Below are positions 9,059 to 45,224 of a DNA stretch of 64,000 bases, one piece after another; position 1 is the stretch's first letter; each line of letters starts with the position of its first letter. Made by a program: the position numbers and the translations under genes. The notes beneath the pieces were generated by a model that worked only from the letters and a program-made list of their open reading frames with translations, did no database searches and was not told the origin of the DNA. The stretch lies in NCBI GenBank assembly GCA_965205675.1, contig OZ242186.1:1472001-1536000 (forward strand), read 5' to 3'. The DNA is from Nitrosopumilus sp. GTDB taxonomy: Archaea; Thermoproteota; Nitrososphaeria; Nitrososphaerales; Nitrosopumilaceae.

Positions 9059-9531
9059 ACCTTTCAGACAGAGTTAATGTACGGGCACCCATCAAATCAG
9101 GGAAATTATCCCTCATAGTTGTATAGTTTGAGAATTTCTTTGAGATATCTTGCTTGATTATTAGTTCTGAATGTAAAGTTAAACAATTGCCTGCTTTCAG
9201 GCCAGATTGTCTTTATCTTCTTTTCCCCCGTATCTGAATTGCTACCATCAGAGTATGCAGCCCCTCAAAGATAATTCCTTTTTTGCTAATCTCAACTATT
9301 ATTGCATTTGTTGTAACATACAGAATTCCTTTACCTACACTGAATTGATTTGAAGCTGTTTCTCAATTTTTTCTTTATTTCTTAGAACAAGTGTCATACT
9401 CTAAATGCCTCCTTTTTGATAAAAGCTTGATTTTACTCTGTTTTTAGCAATATCAACTAATATCAAACTGTTACCCAACATAATTTTATTGTTTTAAAAA
9501 AGATTAAATATTTAGTTGGGTAAAGAATTAC

Positions 9532-26234: not shown

Positions 26235-27645
26235 GTAACTGTCTAGAGTTTTGAAGTACTTTCTTTAATATTTTTTATCTATATCTTTTCTGATCAGTGA
26301 CAAATTACAATATACAATTGTCAGTATATGATGAGCTGGAATATTATCGTAACAGATGTCACTCGCTGGAGCAAGAAAACCGTCAGTTACGCAAAGATAT
26401 TGAATCACTACACAGAGAAATTGCAGAACTAAAACAAACAGTGTCTACACTTGTTGCAAGAAATATCAAAGCAAAACCAAACAAGACTGAAACTGCAAAA
26501 AAGAAGAAAACATCAAGACATCCTAGAAAAAGCAGAAGCAGACGGGCACACATTGATGATGCCATTACAGTTGACCAAAAAGAGTGCAACACATGTGGCA
26601 AATCACTCTCAGAACCAACTGATTCATACACCAGAATAGTAGAAGACATCATTCCTGCAAAAGCAGTTGTGACAAAATATACGATAGTTAGACGATACTG
26701 CACAAACTGCAAAAAACAAATCTCGGGTAACATTCACACTGTACTGTCAAATGAAAGGTTTGGAATTAGGCTCATGGTGCTAATCACATCACTAAAAACT
26801 ATCGGATTATCGTATGGTAAAATATCTCATCTTTTGCAGATGCTCTTCTCACTGCACATTACAGAATCTGCAATTAATCATGCAGTATCAATAGTATCAA
26901 AAGCATTTGGGAGCAGATATGATACAATGATTGTGGAGTTAAAAGAAGATCTAAACATACATGGTGATGAGACAAGTTGGAGGGTAGATGGCCAGAACCA
27001 CTGGTTGTGGGCATTTGTGAGTAAATGGACTGTAATTTACGAGATTGACAAATCACGTTCAATGGATGTTCCCAAGAGAATTCTCAAGGGATATGATGGC
27101 AACATTACAAGTGATTCGTACCCTGCATGGAACCATGTTGGAAGCACTCACCAGAAATGTCACATCCATTATCTCAGAGAGGTTAATGATACCATTAATC
27201 ACAAGAATCCCGGACCAGAATTTGCACCATTTGCCAAGAATCTCAAGAAAATAATTTATGATTCTCATGGTGTGGCAAAAATAAAATCAGAATCAGAAAG
27301 AATCCATGCAAAAAAGAATCTTGAAAGGAGAATTAATCACATCATATCAAAAAAATACACAGAGAAAAACTGTATCAGGTTTGTAAAAAGATTGAAACGT
27401 GAGAGAAAAATGCTTTTTACATTCCTAATTACTGGAACTGATTCACACAATAACACAGCAGAGAGGGCAATCAGACCAAATGTGATAATTCGTAAAATTA
27501 CAAACGGTCATAGAACCATTCATGGTGCTGATTCTCATAAGATACTGATGAGTATAAAGGAGACATGCAGATTACGAGGATTAAACTTTCATGATTATTC
27601 TTTAGAATATCTTGGAGATTTTACTTCAAAACTCTAGACAGTTAC
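26235..27645 (+). mobile_element. Single-ORF IS66-family element, copy 2, intact (transposase 26297-27637)
   Basis: Perfect 24-bp IRs; coiled coil, zinc finger and DDE domain in one 446-aa ORF. Confidence 0.93.
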
Positions 27646-27951: not shown

Positions 27952-28779
27952 ATGGAAATTTCTGTAGGACATACGCCTGATTCAGATGATGCATTCATGT
28001 TCTACGGAATGTTTACAGGCAAAGTGACATCTCCAGATTTTAAGGTAAATCATGTTATTGAGGATATTGAAAAATTAAATCGTAAGGCTACAAATCCAGA
28101 ACTAGATGTAACAGCTGTTTCAGTTCATGCATGTGCATTTATTCCAAGATATACCATATTGAGAAGCGGTGGGAGTTTTGGGATTAATTACGGTCCAATA
28201 GTTACGGCTAGAAAACAGATGAGTCTTGATGAGATTAAAAAATGTAAAATTGCAATTCCTGGGAAAATGACTTCGGCGTTCTTATTATTACAACTAATGA
28301 TTGGAAAGTTTGATTATGTTGAGATGAATTTCAGCGACATTCCCGAGGCGGTAAAATCAGGAAAAGCAGATGTGGGATTAGTAATTCATGAAACACAATT
28401 ATCTTATGAACAAGAAGGAAATGTCAAAATTTTAGATGTTGGTGAGTGGTGGAATAAAACAACAGGCGGATTGCCAGTTCCACTAGGCATCAATGTGATG
28501 AGAACAGATTTAGGCATGGATACTATAGTAAAATTTGACAAATATCTACAATCATCAATTGAGTTCGGTATTGAAAACTTTGATCATGCAATAGAATATG
28601 CCATGCAGTATGCTCGAGGAAAAGAACGAAGTTTAATTGAAAAATTTGTGAAAATGTATGTAAACAAAATCACTGTAAACATGGAAGATTCAGGTGAAGA
28701 ATCAATTAGAAGATTATTCAAAATGGCAAAAGAACAAAAACTAGTCCCAGATTTTGAAATCAATATTGCCAGCAGGTAA
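27952..28779 (+). CDS. mqnD: 1,4-dihydroxy-6-naphthoate synthase-like menaquinone biosynthesis protein
   Basis: GHTPDSDDAFMFY, GGSFGINYGP, IHETQL, LPVPLG, FVKMYVN. Confidence 0.88.
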   Translation: MEISVGHTPDSDDAFMFYGMFTGKVTSPDFKVNHVIEDIEKLNRKATNPELDVTAVSVHACAFIPRYTILRSGGSFGINYGPIVTARKQMSLDEIKKCKIAIPGKMTSAFLLLQLMIGKFDYVEMNFSDIPEAVKSGKADVGLVIHETQLSYEQEGNVKILDVGEWWNKTTGGLPVPLGINVMRTDLGMDTIVKFDKYLQSSIEFGIENFDHAIEYAMQYARGKERSLIEKFVKMYVNKITVNMEDSGEESIRRLFKMAKEQKLVPDFEINIASR

Positions 28780-28805
28780 TTATAGTACAAAAAAATTTAA
28801 CAATT

Positions 28806-29096
28806 ATGGGAGATGGCATAGGTGGAGCAGTTCTTTCAATTCTTACAAATAATGTTTTTGAATTACTAATCAGCCACACAAGAAAAGACAATCAGGAACA
28901 ATATGGAAAAATTGAAAAAATCATCATGAGCAAAATTGATGACCCAGAACAATCACAATATGAAGAAAAAACAAAAGAAGATTTAGAGAGAGCATTAAAG
29001 GGTAAATTTGTTTCATGTAATGTTCAATACAGAGATGGAAAAACAGATGCACTGGTGTGTAATGTATTTGTACAAAGACCGCCAGAAGGCTTTTGA
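28806..29096 (+). CDS. Hypothetical protein
   Basis: Clean 96-aa ORF downstream of mqnD. Confidence 0.7.
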   Translation: MGDGIGGAVLSILTNNVFELLISHTRKDNQEQYGKIEKIIMSKIDDPEQSQYEEKTKEDLERALKGKFVSCNVQYRDGKTDALVCNVFVQRPPEGF

Positions 29097-29177
29097 GAAT
29101 TCAAAATCCATAAAAAACTTTTGAGACAACTCTCCATGCAGTTATCGTCTAGGGATTAAAAGAACAGCATCTATAAT

Positions 29178-30550
29178 TATCCATGTGAATTGTTTTTATA
29201 CATTTCCTCTCTTTCTATACATCAGGGCATGGCTTTCGCTAGAGAATGGTTTCAATCAAAAGATGGCAGACATGTATCCATACGAGACTATTCTCTCAAT
29301 GCTATCTTCATCCTAGTTAGGATTGTTCGCAGTTATTAGACGAGGCCTTGTCCCTCAATAATTACAACGCGACTTGCAGTCCTAACTATAATTTTGTACA
29401 AATTCTCTCCTCTCCTTTAACATCCAATAAATCACCCTCAGGATCTTTGATGCACCAGCTACTGCAGCTTTGGATGATCCTCTTTTCTTTTTAATGCGAT
29501 TGTAAAATTTTGTAATGTCACTATCCTTGGCATGAATTGCATGAGTGTGTATGCATTCTGTTAGAACCCATCTCAATGTCATGCTTCCCCTTTTTGTTAT
29601 TCTGCCATGGTGTATTGTATCTGCAGAGTTTCTAACTGATGGTACAACTCCTGCATATGCACACAGTTTGTGGGAATCATTGAATCTTTCAATATCTGCA
29701 ATCTCTGATGCAATGACAAGCGAAGAATAATGCCCAATTCCCGGAATCGAGTTTATCAAAATTGCATCAGGATTAACTTTTACAGCAGCATACACTTTGG
29801 AATTAATCTCTGCAATCTGTAAATTAAGGTGGCTGATTTGTTGCAAGAATCCGTCTATTCTGTAATCTCCTAGTGCCTTGAGTCTTCTGTTGTATGTTTC
29901 AGTGAATGTAACTCCTGGAATCTTGATTCCTTCTTGTAACAATATTCCATGAACTGAATTCTTGACAGATGTTCTCCATTGGATTAGTTTTTTCCTATAT
30001 CTTACAAGCTGTCTTTGTTGTACAATCTTTTTGTCTGGAACATAACATGTGGCAATGTATCCTCCTCGTAAAAGATCTGCCAATATCTTGGCATCAATCT
30101 TGTCTGTTTTCTTTTTTGATGCAGCAATTGCCTTTGTCAAATATGGGTTTGAGAGTGTGACGTTTTTGTATCCCAAAGTATCTGTGAGAAATCGATACGT
30201 GTCATACCAGACTGATGAGGATTCCATTACAATATTTGCAGAAATTGGTATTTTTGCAAAATGCTTTTTTATGGATTCATGCGTGTTATCCACTTTGTCA
30301 TTTTGTAATACTTTGCCTGCATCATCCATTTATTACTTGAAGAAACTTCTTGTGCAGGTCAATGCCCACAAACATGCCTTTCTTTGGATTTTTTCTAATC
30401 TGTTTGTTTGTAATCTTTTTTGGAGCCGAGTATTTACGAACCTTGGAACTAGATTCATTTTTTATGCTATCTGATTTCCTTGCTTTCTTATTCACATATC
30501 CATGTGAATCCCTTTTAACTATTGTCGGTATTTTTGCCATATTAATTACA
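29178..30550 (-). mobile_element. IS110-family element A, transposase frameshifted near 30330
   Basis: MFVGIDLHK, VMESSS, KKTDKIDA, SIPGIG, YAGVVPSVRNSA, ITKRGS; long 3' non-coding end. Confidence 0.9.
29230..29388 (-). ncRNA. Candidate bridge/seekRNA of IS110 element A
   Basis: Two stem/internal-loop domains, homologous to and covarying with 30550-30715. Confidence 0.65.
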
Positions 30551-30715
30551 GCTTACGCTAATACACTCATACTTTCAATCACAGATGAAACCAGACACAT
30601 ATCCATTCGGGGTTCTCCCCCAGTACCATCTTCATCCATTTATTAGGTGAAACCGCGGTTATAGTTTCGAGGTATTATGCATCCTCAATGTGAAAACGCG
30701 GCCAAACTCCTAACT
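30550..30715 (-). ncRNA. Candidate bridge/seekRNA of IS110 element B
   Basis: Stems TTAGG/CCTAA, CGCG(G)TT/AACCGCG, GAGG/CCTC, GGGG/CCCC; same layout as in element A. Confidence 0.65.
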
Positions 30716-31832
30716 GTAATGTTTTACAAATTATTGATGACATTGAACAAATTCTCTCCTCTCTTTTAGCATCCAATATATGACACGCAATAACTTTGAT
30801 GCAGCAGCAACTGCTGCCTTTGAGGTCCCTCTCTTTTTCTTAATGCGATTATAAAATTTTGTAATGTCGCTATCTAGTGCGTATCTAACATGTGCATGAA
30901 TCGCCTCCACTAGCAACCATCTTAGCATGGTGCTTCCTCTCTTTGTAATTCTTCCGTGATGTATTGTATCTGCAGAATTTCTCACCGATGGAACAATCCC
31001 TGCATATGCACATAACTTGTGAGAATTTGAAAATCTACTAATCTCTGCAATTTCTGAGAATATGCTCAATGCAGTGTATGGTCCAACTCCAGGTATTGAT
31101 GTCAAAATACACACACCAGGATTATCATTTACCATGCGACGTATCATGGAATCTATCTTTGCAACCTCCTTTTTGTGAAATTTTATGCTTTGTAGGTACG
31201 AATCTATTCTATAACTCTCCAATTTTCCAAGTGCACGTATGTGTTCTGAGGAAAATGGTGTTGCTTTGATATGGATTCCCTCCTGTAGTGTAATACCATG
31301 TATGGAATTCTTCATCTTTACAATGATGCGCACAATCTTGTGTCGATGTCTTACAAGCTGTCTGTATTGCACAATTGTGTGATCTGGCACAAATGATTCT
31401 GCAATGTATCCCTCCTCGTAGCAAATTTGCAAGATGGTACGCATCAATTTTATCAGTCTTTTTGAGTGATGATGCTATTATCTTTGTGTTGTATGGATTA
31501 GATAGTATAACATCAAGATGTAATTTGTCTGTCATGTGTCTATAAAGGCCATACCAGACAGATGATGACTCTAAAACATATTTTGCGTTCTTTGGAATTT
31601 TGGATGTAATTTTGCTAATAGCAGAAAAATCACTGGAAATCTTTTTGTTAAATAATAATTTGCCAATCTCATCTACTGCTGCCACCTGTACAGAGTTCTT
31701 GTGAACATCCAATCCTACAAACATCAAATATTTTTTTTCAGGAAGGGTAGTGTGTTTGTTTGCATTTCTTACTTTCTTGATACGAATGCAAGTACCATCT
31801 AATTTCCTAGCTGATTTTGGCACATATGGTTA
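30550..31832 (-). mobile_element. IS110-family element B, transposase frameshifted near 31410
   Basis: MFVGLDVHK, LESSS, KKTDKIDA, SIPGVG, YAGIVPSVRNSA; an extra G in the LRGGY codons. Confidence 0.9.
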
Positions 31833-31945
31833 TAGTTATTAGTAAAGTTATGATTAAAATTAATATTGTAAAATCATATGTATTATCTTGATTTTTTGTA
31901 TTTTGGGCTATTTTGAGAGCAGTTAGATTCATTGGCTGATCCATA

Positions 31946-32281
31946 TTGATTTCTGAAGCATCAATTAAAATTTCTGTTAATTTTAAAAAAAGTATTGATT
32001 ACTCCTATGTAAGAACATGTTCTGATGGTAGCGCTATTGTAAGCTTGATTGTGATTAGAGATGTTGATATTTCTTTTGATATTATTACAACTGCAGAAAG
32101 GTATGCAAAAGAAAAAGATTCTTTCACAGTACATGTTAATACTCTTGAAAAAGTATCTAATGAAATTGATTTAGAACTATCTGAGTGGATTATCCATATT
32201 GTAATTGGTAAAATTTTAATGATAGGTGTGGTTATGTTTATGTTCCTGAGAAGATCTAAATCTAATTTGGAAGAAGAATAG
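31946..32281 (+). CDS. Hypothetical, possibly a fragment with a C-terminal membrane anchor
   Basis: ORF with a hydrophobic C-terminal helix and charged tail, next to the IS110 end. Confidence 0.4.
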   Translation: MISEASIKISVNFKKSIDYSYVRTCSDGSAIVSLIVIRDVDISFDIITTAERYAKEKDSFTVHVNTLEKVSNEIDLELSEWIIHIVIGKILMIGVVMFMFLRRSKSNLEEE

Positions 32282-32298
32282 GAAAAAAGAGAAGAACT

Positions 32299-32508
32299 CT
32301 AGTTTTTTCTTATTTTTCTTTTATCTCTACAAATACCACAAAGATATTTTTTTGTAAATTCATTTAATTCTTTTTTAAATTCATTTGTTTGGAAATATTT
32401 TTCTCCTGTTTTTAATCCTCCTGGCACAGATTTCCCACATATGATGCAATGAATTTCCAGATTAAATTTTATAACTTTTTCATTTTTTGATATTTTTCCT
32501 ATTATCAT
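32299..32508 (-). CDS. Small CxxC zinc-binding protein
   Basis: CIIC...CGIC in 69 aa. Confidence 0.7.
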   Translation of the reverse strand: MIIGKISKNEKVIKFNLEIHCIICGKSVPGGLKTGEKYFQTNEFKKELNEFTKKYLCGICRDKRKIRKN

Positions 32509-32594
32509 GAGGGCTTATTTTCTTTCATTTTGACATAAACAATAGTGTTTTCCTAAATCTCATGGATATTATATTGAAAAATTGACTTCAGTAC

Positions 32595-33527
32595 ATGTTT
32601 GCAGTGTGGTTTAGGGTAATTCGCATACGTTTTCTATTAGCATCTGTTATTGCTGTATCCGTAGGACTGTCTCTGAATTGGTGGCAGCACTCTTCAATAG
32701 ATTTGATGGATGCACTTCTTACTTTTGGAGGTGTTATGGCACTTCATACTAGTGTTGATTTATTAAATGATTTTTGGGATTTTAAACGCGGTATTGACAC
32801 TGCAACAAAAAGAACAAAAATGAGTGGCGGTACTGGCGTACTGCCTGAAGGCTTGCTTACACCCTCTTCTGTTTATCGTGCTGGTATTGCATTTTTAATA
32901 ATTGGATCTATGATTGGCAGTTACTTTGTTATTACTGATGGCATCACCATTGCCATAATTCTCGGGTTTGCAATCTTATCTATTTATTTTTACTCTACTA
33001 AAATCATTGACTCTGGTTTGGGGGAATTTTTTGTGGCTGTAAAAGGTGCAATGATTGTCATTGGAACTTTTTTTATTCAATCTGGGCAAATTTCTGTAGA
33101 ATCTATCCTTGCCGGAATTTCTGTAGGATCTCTTTCTGCACTAGTATTGTTTATTGCATCTTTTCCTGATCATGATGCAGACAAGTCCAAAGGCAGAAAA
33201 ACTTTGGTGATTGTAGTAGGAAAACAAAAAGCTGCGAAGTTATTTTGGGTTTTTCCTTTAGTTTCTTATTTGGCAATAATCATTGGTGTTGCTACCACCC
33301 TTTTTCCAGTATTTTCTTTGATCAGCTTATTTAGCATCCCACTCATGATAAAATCGGGATTTGGATTACAGAAAAATTACAATTTTGTAAACGATCTTGT
33401 CCCATACATGTCTACAACTTTGATGTTTAGCAGAGTTACTGGAGCGTTGTTTGTGATTGGATTTTTAATTTCTGTCATGTGTAATCAGTTTTTCGATAGC
33501 TTCTTGTTACTGGAGCGTTGTTTGTGA
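32595..33527 (+). CDS. UbiA/MenA-family prenyltransferase with altered C-terminus
   Basis: NDFWDFKRGID and DHDADKSKGRKTL aspartate motifs; the original end GFLIGM* survives at 33550, after the duplication. Confidence 0.88.
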   Translation: MFAVWFRVIRIRFLLASVIAVSVGLSLNWWQHSSIDLMDALLTFGGVMALHTSVDLLNDFWDFKRGIDTATKRTKMSGGTGVLPEGLLTPSSVYRAGIAFLIIGSMIGSYFVITDGITIAIILGFAILSIYFYSTKIIDSGLGEFFVAVKGAMIVIGTFFIQSGQISVESILAGISVGSLSALVLFIASFPDHDADKSKGRKTLVIVVGKQKAAKLFWVFPLVSYLAIIIGVATTLFPVFSLISLFSIPLMIKSGFGLQKNYNFVNDLVPYMSTTLMFSRVTGALFVIGFLISVMCNQFFDSFLLLERCL

Positions 33528-44540: not shown

Positions 44541-45005
44541 TAGAGCGACGATCAAAAGTTCGTGAACATTTTTGCAGGATTTCTAAAGATATAATTTGCA
44601 ACATCAAGCTTGAATCTTGTCATTCTAAAATATTTTGACACTGCATCATTCATCATCGTAAACATTGCATAATATTCTGAAACCAACAACGCATACTCTC
44701 TAACAAAATTTTATGAACTATTGATCTGATTTATTTTACCAAATGCCATATTGATCAAAACATTACACATCAAACCATGAATAATCAAAAATTAATTCAA
44801 GCATACAAAGATGAAAAGAACGTCAAGGTAAAAGAAAGGCTATTTTTGATAAAGCGAGTATTACTTGAGAACCAAATTGCATCACATGTTGCAAAGAATC
44901 TTGGACGTGTACGTTCATGGGCATACAAATGGTTAGATAGATTTGCAGAATGTGGAATTGCAGTACTGCAAGACTTGCCTAGAACTGGCAGATCAACTAA
45001 CATAC
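44541..45005. mobile_element. Two IS630 fragments
   Basis: 44541-44695 matches about 6246-6400; about 44696-45005 is an inverted copy of the 5' part of 40450-41543. Confidence 0.85.
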
Positions 45006-45009
45006 TAGA

Positions 45010-45224
45010 AAAATTGTAAATTACGTTAAAATTTATGAGGTGCAAGACCTCATCTGTTAATTGTGAATAATTCTAATGAACAGATAAAGATAGCATTGAT
45101 GATATGAATCTCGCAGAGATACATGTCTGCGCATCTTTTGTTTGGAACCATTCCCTAGTAAAAGCTATGATCTGATGTTTGAAAAGAAAGAGCGTATAAA
45201 AACAATTCACATGGATAATTATAG
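45010..45224 (+). mobile_element. Solo degenerate IS110 3' end with bridge-RNA remnant
   Basis: Shares GATAGCATTGA, GATACATGTCTG and GTATAAAAACAATTCACATGGATAATTATAG with the reverse complement of 29171-29388. Confidence 0.8.

Follow-up and report, generated by a model that had tools for sequence, protein, structure and literature searches.

Nested IS1111-type insertion sequences with predicted bispecific guide RNAs in a Nitrosopumilus genome

The stretch of DNA analyzed here (the window) comprises 64,000 nucleotides (nt) of contig OZ242186.1 from Nitrosopumilus sp., whose genome is assembled as a single 2.01-Mb contig (hereafter the source genome, G000). Between positions 29179 and 31839, its minus strand carries two IS110-family elements of the IS1111 type, A and B, each composed of a DEDD transposase gene and a structured 3' non-coding region of ~155 nt, within the ~200 nt of non-coding DNA that follow each of the two related genes. 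An original prediction, made from the letters of this DNA, had described tandem IS110 elements; two elements are indeed present, but the arrangement is more than a tandem one, B sitting 6 nt inside the left end of A. It had also proposed a thaumarchaeal family of RNA-guided recombinases with a 3'-encoded RNA, a proposal borne out by the predicted fold, the covariation between guides and flanks, the empty sites, the matches with the element ends, the NCBIfam score and the hosts of the relatives. Taken together, A and B are very probably IS1111-type insertion sequences (IS) equipped with a bispecific guide RNA, residing in a Nitrosopumilus-like archaeon.

Domains from Pfam, namely DEDD_Tnp_IS110 (PF01548) together with Transposase_20 (PF02371), are found on the four open reading frame (ORF) pieces of the two window genes. 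The NCBIfam model NF033542, "IS110 family RNA-guided transposase", scores 228.8 bits with the intact A protein and 250.5 bits with the intact protein of a third element type of the source genome, C (cutoff 140). When aligned to the solved ISCro4 transposase (9t56, E 4.8e-12), the intact A protein retains the GID, mEs and DkiDA motifs and the Ser of PsvrnS, and hence the catalytic Asp, Glu, Asp and Asp together with the C-terminal Ser positions; similarity to IS621 covers the C-terminal part only (E 2.9e-9). The C-terminal motif of A reads GVVPSVRNSA, with SA where IS1111 has SG or TG. As originally noted, each window gene carries a single frameshift. In A, a 2-nt deletion near 30333 splits the first catalytic Asp (GIDLHK) from the remainder of the protein; it is shared by 9 of 11 copies, the window's included, the other two being intact with an ORF of 371 residues from a GTG, or 331 residues from an internal Met. 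In B, an extra G in a G run near 31410 splits the ORF, and the frame is broken at this same site in all nine readable copies (seven with the identical extra G, two with a further 3-nt deletion). At L030 and L031 of a related assembly (L-numbers denote related loci in other assemblies), B-type ORFs of 363 residues are intact, as is the C ORF (369 residues). Public contigs have one base fewer at 31410, at full depth in three runs and at 9125/13539 in a fourth, and carry 2 extra bases at 30333; therefore, intact forms of A and B circulate, and the broken B also occurs outside the assembly. Since intact copies exist, repairing the frameshifts before an assay, as had been suggested, is unnecessary.

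The basic N-terminal extensions of the original prediction correspond to a conserved open frame of 35-43 residues that precedes the catalytic domain, the NCBIfam profile beginning at residue 42 in A and 39 in C. All distinct lineages examined keep this segment open from the GTG within the left-end repeat; it is basic, and displays conserved SDS/SDG/LDGT and (A)NKQI motifs. Its length changes preserve the frame, and we take this extension to be translated.

Comparison of filled and empty sites defines the left end of A as AACTATATGTGAAT, its right end as ..ATTCACATGG, its core as AT and its target as CCA-AT-AATTACA, filled sites reading ..CCAAT/AACTATATGTGAAT ... CACATGGAT/AATTACA.. (slashes mark boundaries). 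Both elements possess an 8-bp subterminal inverted repeat, with ATGTGAAT located 6 nt from the left tip and ATTCACAT located 2 nt plus the core from the right tip. In A, ~200 nt extend from the stop codon (29382) to the right end (29181), as compared with 8 nt before the GTG. B is inserted after the sixth base of A (left end AACT-AT-ATGTGAAT): AACTAT and ATGTGAAT are uninterrupted in solo A copies, whereas B separates both parts in the window. At 17 of the 18 places examined, the B left junction reads NN-TAACY-AT/AACCATATGTGCC, the exception being a degraded relic at 1923325, and the B right junction always reads ..CACATGG-AT/ATGTGAATAAG. The left junction of A had been reported not to fit cleanly; this apparent misfit arises because B inserted 6 nt inside A. 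The true junction lies at 31838/31837, where ACTAAT+AACT matches TCTAAT+AACT of the A loop. A first boundary model, with the left target followed by AT and then ATGTG..., was dropped, the empty sites assigning AACTAT to the element. The features are collected in Table 1.

Table 1. Positions of the features of elements A and B and of a related relic in the window (CM, covariance model)
Feature	Positions	Strand	Sequence relations or basis
A right target half, AATTATA (AATTACA at most other copies)	29172..29178	-	complements 5' strand of A target loop
A right core, AT	29180-29179	-	
A right end: A/T box TATAAAAA, then subterminal repeat ATTCACAT + GG	29181..29200	-	
Remainder of element A, ATGTGAATAAG ... 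ATTCACATGG	29181..30497	-	ends from empty sites
A bridge/seekRNA gene (predicted)	29239..29391	-	CM match, 162.8 bits
A donor loop, 3' strand	29283-29273	-	
A donor loop, 5' strand	29308-29298	-	
A target loop, 3' strand	29341-29331	-	
A target loop, 5' strand	29367-29357	-	
A transposase gene, GTG 30495 within left-end repeat	29382..30495	-	broken near 30333
Core copy AT after B	30499-30498	-	
Element B, left end AACCATATGTGCC, right end ..ATTCACATGG	30500..31831	-	nine copies in the source genome
B bridge/seekRNA gene (predicted)	30558..30719	-	CM match, 109.9 bits
B donor loop, 3' strand	30608-30598	-	ATGG-AT-ATGTG: B right end, core, A bases 7-11
B donor loop, 5' strand	30632-30622	-	ATGGT: complement of B bases 2-6
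B target loop, 3' strand	30668-30657	-	AACT-AT-AACC: A bases 1-4, core, B bases 1-4
B target loop, 5' strand	30696-30687	-	TTCACAT: complement of A bases 7-13, ATGTGAA
B transposase gene, start GTG 31823, ORFs 31209-31823 and 30731-31447	30731..31823	-	Pfam matches
A outer 6 nt, AACTAT, severed by B	31832..31837	-	continuous in solo A copies
A left target half, ACTA + core AT (core 31839-31838)	31838..31843	-	5/6 positions as in A loop strand TCTAAT; boundary from empty sites
Relic 3' fragment of a related element: RNA gene and right end, without transposase gene	45002..45217	+	CM match, 120.7 bits at 45002-45158

The 3' non-coding tails of A and B share 70% column identity and contain the motif blocks listed in the original prediction, and the compensatory swap announced there as GAGA/TCTC versus GGGG/CCCC is confirmed as GAGAG/CUCUC versus GGGG/CCCC. 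A scan of one genome per species identified 75 related loci in 14 assemblies (protein identity 41-98%), with hosts that are nearly all Nitrosopumilus, Cenarchaeum or Nitrosopumilaceae. A profile of the non-coding region matches directly 3' of the gene in nearly all uncut loci, and the covariance model match begins at the stop codon. RNAalifold analysis of 32 representatives reports two domains, each made up of a stem, an internal loop and a terminal hairpin, with double changes in 11 of 24 pairs; single-sequence minimum free energy folds of the donor domain are mutually inconsistent, and the alignment consensus was used. The covariance model built from this alignment was searched on the window plus 77 loci and returned 76 matches, those beyond the seed including L051-L053 (103-105 bits) and L064 (93.5 bits). 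Across 62 distinct rows, comprising the source genome and homologues from Nitrosopumilaceae metagenome-assembled genomes, 98.7% of the 1444 cells of the two-domain fold are paired, as compared with 34-49% in a control with partners slid by 1-3 columns. Double-sided changes affect 12 of the 24 pairs in these rows, and none of 500 shuffles reached the observed values, in keeping with the covarying, bridge-RNA-like downstream structures first proposed. The two swap-hairpin pairs are AU in 53 and GC in 9 of the homologues, and GC in 40 and AU in 19, respectively. The scaffold is kept across lineages and the stretch following CGCG, on the 5' strand of the first internal loop, varies by lineage: the entropy amounts to 1.11 and 1.25 bits for the two target-loop strands, 0.31 and 0.48 bits for the donor-loop strands, and 0.13-0.41 bits for the stems. 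An Rfam search of window positions 28000-33000 (E <=10) returned no bridge-RNA family; its hits were chance-level microRNA, long non-coding RNA and U6 models far below their gathering scores.

The individual matches between loops and junctions that had been pointed out are all present. The B loop strand AACTATAACC (30666-30657) is identical to positions 31836-31827, the B loop ATGGT is complementary to ACCAT, the loop ATGGAT(A) equals the right ends, and the A loop TGTAATTAT is complementary to AT+AATTATA with one G-T pair; the complement of this A loop becomes perfect (AATTACA) at 6 of the 8 tabulated right junctions of A copies. The loop-target covariation test recommended with the original prediction used 84 rows, that is, the 76 covariance model matches and 8 A copies of the source genome placed by coordinate, with loop strands taken by model column and junctions by end motifs. 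Rows without a recognizable right end, left end or complete loop were dropped and identical guide-junction pairs were merged, yielding 65 right and 50 left junctions; the C, D-H and solo-B copies of the source genome outside the compared loci are left out of these tests. On the right side, 30 distinct 5' strands were compared with the 65 unique junctions, and the longest exact run between their reverse complement and the core plus right flank averages 6.28. Permutation gives 3.24 (sd 0.22, max 4.02) and reached the observed value in 0 of 2000 rounds, four offsets being allowed equally for the data and the shuffles. The exact run is at least 6 nt long in 45 of the 65 pairs and at least 8 nt in 29. 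On the left side (20 distinct 3' strands, 50 junctions), the six bases that precede the terminal AACT agree with the left flank at 4.32 of 6 positions, as compared with 2.45 (sd 0.24) under permutation, the observed agreement being reached in 0 of 5000 rounds; leaving aside the two core positions, the agreement is 2.43 of 4 versus 1.16. The loops thus track both flanks beyond chance.

Single loci illustrate this correspondence. At L003, the strand AAAATTTAT faces the flank AT+AAATTTT, and TCTGGT in the loop faces TCTGGT in the flank; at L040, from Cenarchaeum, ACGCAT faces ACGCAT; and exact loop-flank matches extend over 10 nt at L013 and 9 nt at L063. Among elements whose proteins and scaffolds are 85-99% identical, only the loop strands differ, and the insertion sites differ correspondingly. 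The 3' strand of the target loop always ends with 3-4 nt that equal the first bases of the element itself (AACT, AACC), a segment that we read, by analogy, as handshake-like.

Comparing filled with empty sites, as had also been recommended, gives in two genomes, the source genome and that of L003 (G001), an empty site equal to the left flank joined to the right flank. In the source genome, CCAATAATTACA is uninterrupted at three places paralogous to filled A sites. In G001, the guides of L003 and L008 predict the target CTGKT+AAATTTT (CTGKTAAATTTT), which has six matches in that genome versus one for the reversed control; four of these matches fall within a palindromic repeat, GGTTCTGGT/AAATTTTGGTGATC.GATCACC, equal to the left plus right flank of the filled sites. 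The empty sites give a shared core AT, possibly only its T, in place of the TA core first assumed. The L003/L008 lineage has GT in the target where its right junction has AT and, across lineages, the left junction keeps the NT of the target, as specified by the 3' loop strand, while the right junction is always AT. Since targets keep NT while right junctions have AT, only the core T is necessarily shared. Insertion is site-specific without a long target duplication, only AT, or T alone, being common to both junctions. A single shared T would fit an exchange of the top strand just 3' of the core, by analogy with IS621 as described in the consulted part of PMC11208158.

Two repeats that serve as targets were seen along the way. 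The target of the G001 lineage (L079 and L081; flanks of L003, L008-L011 and L025) is a repeated palindrome, GGTTCTGGT AAATTTT GGTGATC(N)GATCACC .. ACCAGAA, which resembles a bacterial repetitive extragenic palindromic (REP) sequence or a small miniature inverted-repeat transposable element. In OZ250170, ~20 copies of one lineage (L016-L029, L038, L039) are found in the same repeat, ..TTTGCT / (T)GATTCATAC.., and their right junctions, which differ by one T, suggest slippage or two core target variants.

The donor loop relates to the ends of the element itself. Its 3' strand, ATGGAT or ATAGAT, changes in step with right ends in ..CATGG+AT or ..CATAG+AT in 63 of 66 unique pairs, and its 5' strand, ATAG or ATGG, is complementary to CTAT or CCAT of the left end (AACTAT/AACCAT) in 41 of 45. 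All four left-end discordances come from hybrids, B-type in the 5' part and A-type in the 3' part; immediately upstream of the nested B-type left end, three of the four have an A-type AACTAT. Beyond the core, the 3' strand also equals the first bases of the right target in B and C (both ATGTG) and in the OZ252243 lineage (ACAT). Statistically, these donor-loop matches are weak, and they are consistent with the guide-RNA model.

The loops of B (strands in Table 1) spell out the target AACY-AT-ATGTGAA, a sequence that forms the left end of A- and C-type relatives. This programme accounts for the insertion of B at 6 nt from the left tip of A. The source genome holds 10 near-full copies of A (98.7-100% identity) plus one partial copy, the B non-coding stretch in 9 copies at 100% identity, four copies of C (~67% DNA identity) and several degraded relatives. 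Five A copies are solo and five directly follow a B, and all nine RNA-bearing B copies abut A left-end sequence, either a full A or a stump of 73-308 nt. B-type elements also lie in A-type left ends at L030, L031 and L047 of one assembly, and in a C-like element at L063 of another. Left pieces of both kinds (AACTAT and AACCAT), as well as AACCAT-AACCAT footprints, are seen at B left junctions. One might imagine, though we hold it to be unlikely, that B-type elements are RNA-guided hyperparasites or hitch-hikers of sibling insertion sequences, a frame-broken B riding on, or switching on, the recombinase of A and moving as a B-A composite. Such an insertion would split the donor site of the host element and would set the outward A/T box of the B right end directly before the recombinase gene of the host.

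Instead, a single ancestral event that placed B in A could lie behind the B-A pairs, having been multiplied by segmental duplication or as a 2.66-kb composite that used the outer 6 nt and the right end of A, a history that we also find doubtful as the whole explanation. The B left junctions at 996441, 930004 and 444231 share their left flank and the pairs at 928663 and 441791 their right flank, and are thus duplications; the composite retains the outer AACTAT and the right end of A, flanked in the window by A-type target halves; and the frame break found at the same site in all B copies means that B may not move alone here. Copying does not, however, account for the match of all four B loop strands with AACT-AT/ATGTGAA and with the ends of B itself, for the B-type elements residing in different hosts, A-type and C-like, in two other assemblies, or for the left pieces of both kinds and the footprints. 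Composite copying complements the guided insertion of B rather than excluding it, and both processes probably occurred.

Elements of hybrid make-up, B-type on the 5' side and A-type on the 3' side, including RNA and right end, occur at 754380-755695 of the source genome and, in a related assembly, at L042, L044, L046, L050 and L066. They are probably products of recombination within B-A pairs. The guides of some hybrids misfit their present flanks.

In the mechanism proposed for this family, transcription of the RNA, its binding by the protein and the chemistry of exchange would follow, by homology, those of IS621 and ISEc11. The recombinase gene starts at the GTG in the left-end repeat, with the predicted ~155-nt RNA gene directly after its stop codon. 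The 5' strand of the target loop (loop 1) complements the top strand of the core and right target, and its 3' strand, identical to the left target and core, would pair with the bottom strand. In the donor loop (loop 2), the 5' strand complements nt 2-6 of the left end and the 3' strand repeats the final 4 nt of the right end plus the core AT. The excised circle would join right end, AT and left end (..CACATGG AT AACTATATGTG..), and the RNA-recombinase complex would pair this circle with a target consisting of left target, (N)T and right target, strands being exchanged at the core.

Several observations weigh against this scheme. The RNA is predicted from sequence, and the alignment used for counting pairs was itself fitted to the covariance model. 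In helix P4, the one closing the donor loop, a double change affects only a single pair. The exact run is shorter than 6 nt at 20 of the 65 right junctions, and discordant loci include L059 on the left side (1/6) and L041, L062 and one L044 junction on the right. The 5' target strand does not keep a fixed register to the core, with offsets of -1, 0 and +1 in 12, 15 and 18 of the 45 good pairs, which counts against the scheme because a rigid ribonucleoprotein model does not predict such variation. The permutations are not phylogenetically independent, as many loci come from few assemblies (15 including the source genome), and donor concordance reflects few independent events, each end having only two states. 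Finally, the 3' tail of the A donor loop, ACA, is unlike the right target of A, AAT.

Two other roles of the 3' region have to be weighed. It could be transcribed and regulate transposase expression, for instance through a 3' untranslated structure, as an antisense target or by signalling processing, in which case targets would be chosen by other means. A regulatory effect on expression was once attributed to the non-coding ends of IS110 elements (PMC11208160), and the predicted RNA abuts the stop codon and so may be part of the mRNA, but this explanation leaves unaccounted for the hypervariable loop strands that track both flanks and the loop-predicted targets found as empty sites, and we consider it very improbable. 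Least probable of all is that the region acts as DNA, through subterminal protein-binding sites, the likeness of loops and flanks being a by-product of a target preference encoded in the protein: although the guide RNA is known from sequence only, the region adjoins the right end and subterminal repeats are a trait of the IS1111 group, DNA-binding sites have no need of stems kept paired through double changes in 12 of 24 pairs, near-identical elements (85-99%) differ only in loop strands and insert at correspondingly different sites, and the two strands relate differently to the flanks, one by complementarity and the other by identity, the pattern expected of strand-specific pairing. The bispecific guide RNA thus stays the preferred reading of the 3' region.

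The right end displays a further conserved feature. Of the 34 distinct true right ends listed, 33 contain an A/T box that starts 20-22 nt from the end of right end plus core, its forms including TATAAAAA, TTTAAAAA, CTTAAAAAG, TTTTTAAAG and GTTAAAAGG; the 34th, the right end of L056, returned no match to the A/T box pattern. The archaeal TATA box is centred about 26-27 nt before the start site. In the circle form, the A/T box would sit ~30 nt before the GTG at the left-end tip, and a promoter at the circle junction would start transcription at about this GTG, producing a leaderless mRNA. The right-end A/T box is likely an archaeal TATA box, and we advance the hypothesis that it is the archaeal counterpart of the circle-junction promoters of bacterial IS110 elements (PMC11208160, consulted in part). 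We also considered whether an ATG of the right end could, in the circle, open a frame that runs over the junction and into the recombinase gene; this was rejected, since the corrected left end has a TAA three codons upstream of the GTG.

The use of bridge RNAs (PMC11208160) and of seekRNAs (Siddiquee et al. 2024, PMC11187229) by IS110 and IS1111 elements is established. For 93.0% of IS1111s, Durrant et al. (2024, PMC11208160) predicted an RNA, placed in the right end. IS1111 elements are recognized by an RNA downstream of the gene, subterminal repeats and a top-strand match located 5' of the bottom-strand match (PMC11187229; PMC11208160), by inverted repeats of 7-17 bp with short terminal extensions, and by a transposase of 330-350 residues that has a GL-P----S(t)G motif and branches within the IS1111 clade (PMC11187229). 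The present elements resemble ISEc11, ISPa11 and ISKpn4 (PMC11187229, PMC11208160) in their DEDD transposase, subterminal repeats and long non-coding region downstream of the gene, in the top-strand match located 5' of the bottom-strand match with an overlap at the insertion point, and in close relatives that differ in target. They differ from these elements in their Nitrosopumilaceae hosts, the basic N-terminal extension of 35-43 residues, the motif G-x-x-P-x-x-x-x-S-A, and a core AT of which only the T is shared with the target. Their assignment to the IS1111 type follows from layout, repeats, RNA position and match order.

With IS621 (Durrant et al. 2024; Hiraizumi et al. 2024, PMC11208158), the family shares target and donor internal loops, one strand per DNA strand, and extra bases that match the non-cognate partner. 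However, the IS621 RNA lies upstream, in the left end, with its guides in the opposite order with respect to the gene. Once strands have been exchanged, the handshake guides of IS621 pair with the non-cognate DNA (PMC11208158; PMC13626964); they are 2 nt long, whereas 3-4 nt here equal the left end of the element in all lineages and the donor tail matches the target in some. An IS1111-type element with the end of another mobile element as its preferred site is known to us from a reference title in PMC11208160; in contrast with that element, B targets the left end of sibling IS1111-like elements, 6 nt in, at a site that overlaps the bases read by the siblings' own donor loop, and its RNA programme for this site can be read. 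Insertion of the G001 lineage (L003, L008-L011) in a palindromic repeat recalls the REP-targeting IS621 and ISPpu9 with its Ssr9 RNA (PMC12288879) and, as for ISPpu9 and REP-targeting elements, solo copies of the RNA gene occur (window 45002-45217), here in an archaeal host. Archaeal IS110 recombinases number 662 in the portion of Vaysset et al. (10.1101/2024.06.21.599552) at hand. The accessible text of PMC13343696 mentions IS110 once and does not describe this family, and none of the titles and opening abstract lines of the other papers returned by a full-text literature search points to these Nitrosopumilaceae elements, although the supplements of PMC11208160 and PMC11187229 may list archaeal members. 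What is new here is that one element is nested in the end of another, and that the family has an N-terminal extension, a long handshake-like segment and an A/T box in the right end.

Elsewhere in the window, the relic listed in Table 1 ends with the right end CACATGGAT at ~45209-45217, followed by AATTATA, and no left end was found nearby. It directly follows an unrelated 80-residue winged-helix ORF (44777-45019, HTH_29), probably belonging to another transposon. An intact-looking IS66-family transposase gene (446 residues, DDE_Tnp_IS66 and zf-IS66; 26297-27637, plus strand) lies ~1.5 kb from the IS1111-like pair, with a VitK2_biosynth (menaquinone-biosynthesis) gene in between (27952-28779). 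In public contigs, one in each of two runs, 28849 is joined to 31978, omitting 3128 nt that correspond to both elements plus ~330 and ~140 nt of flank. This joint was rejected as an empty site, the shorter side having only 21 letters and the breakpoints lying off the element ends, and it may be a repeat artefact or a deletion variant.

Bridge and seekRNA recombinases are being developed as programmable DNA-insertion tools, and the experiments rest nearly all on a few bacterial elements. The Nitrosopumilaceae family provides a natural retargeting series, with at least 30 distinct target-loop strands on one scaffold and with filled and empty sites from which rules can be read, namely a one-base shared core, a variable guide register and a long handshake-like segment. 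The mechanism would thereby operate in mesophilic archaea, with a GTG at the element tip, a TATA-like box in the right end and a basic N-terminal segment. The B-A pair offers a legible case of one insertion sequence aimed at another and, for annotation, the family explains the IS-rich, rearranged genomes of symbiont-like Nitrosopumilus.

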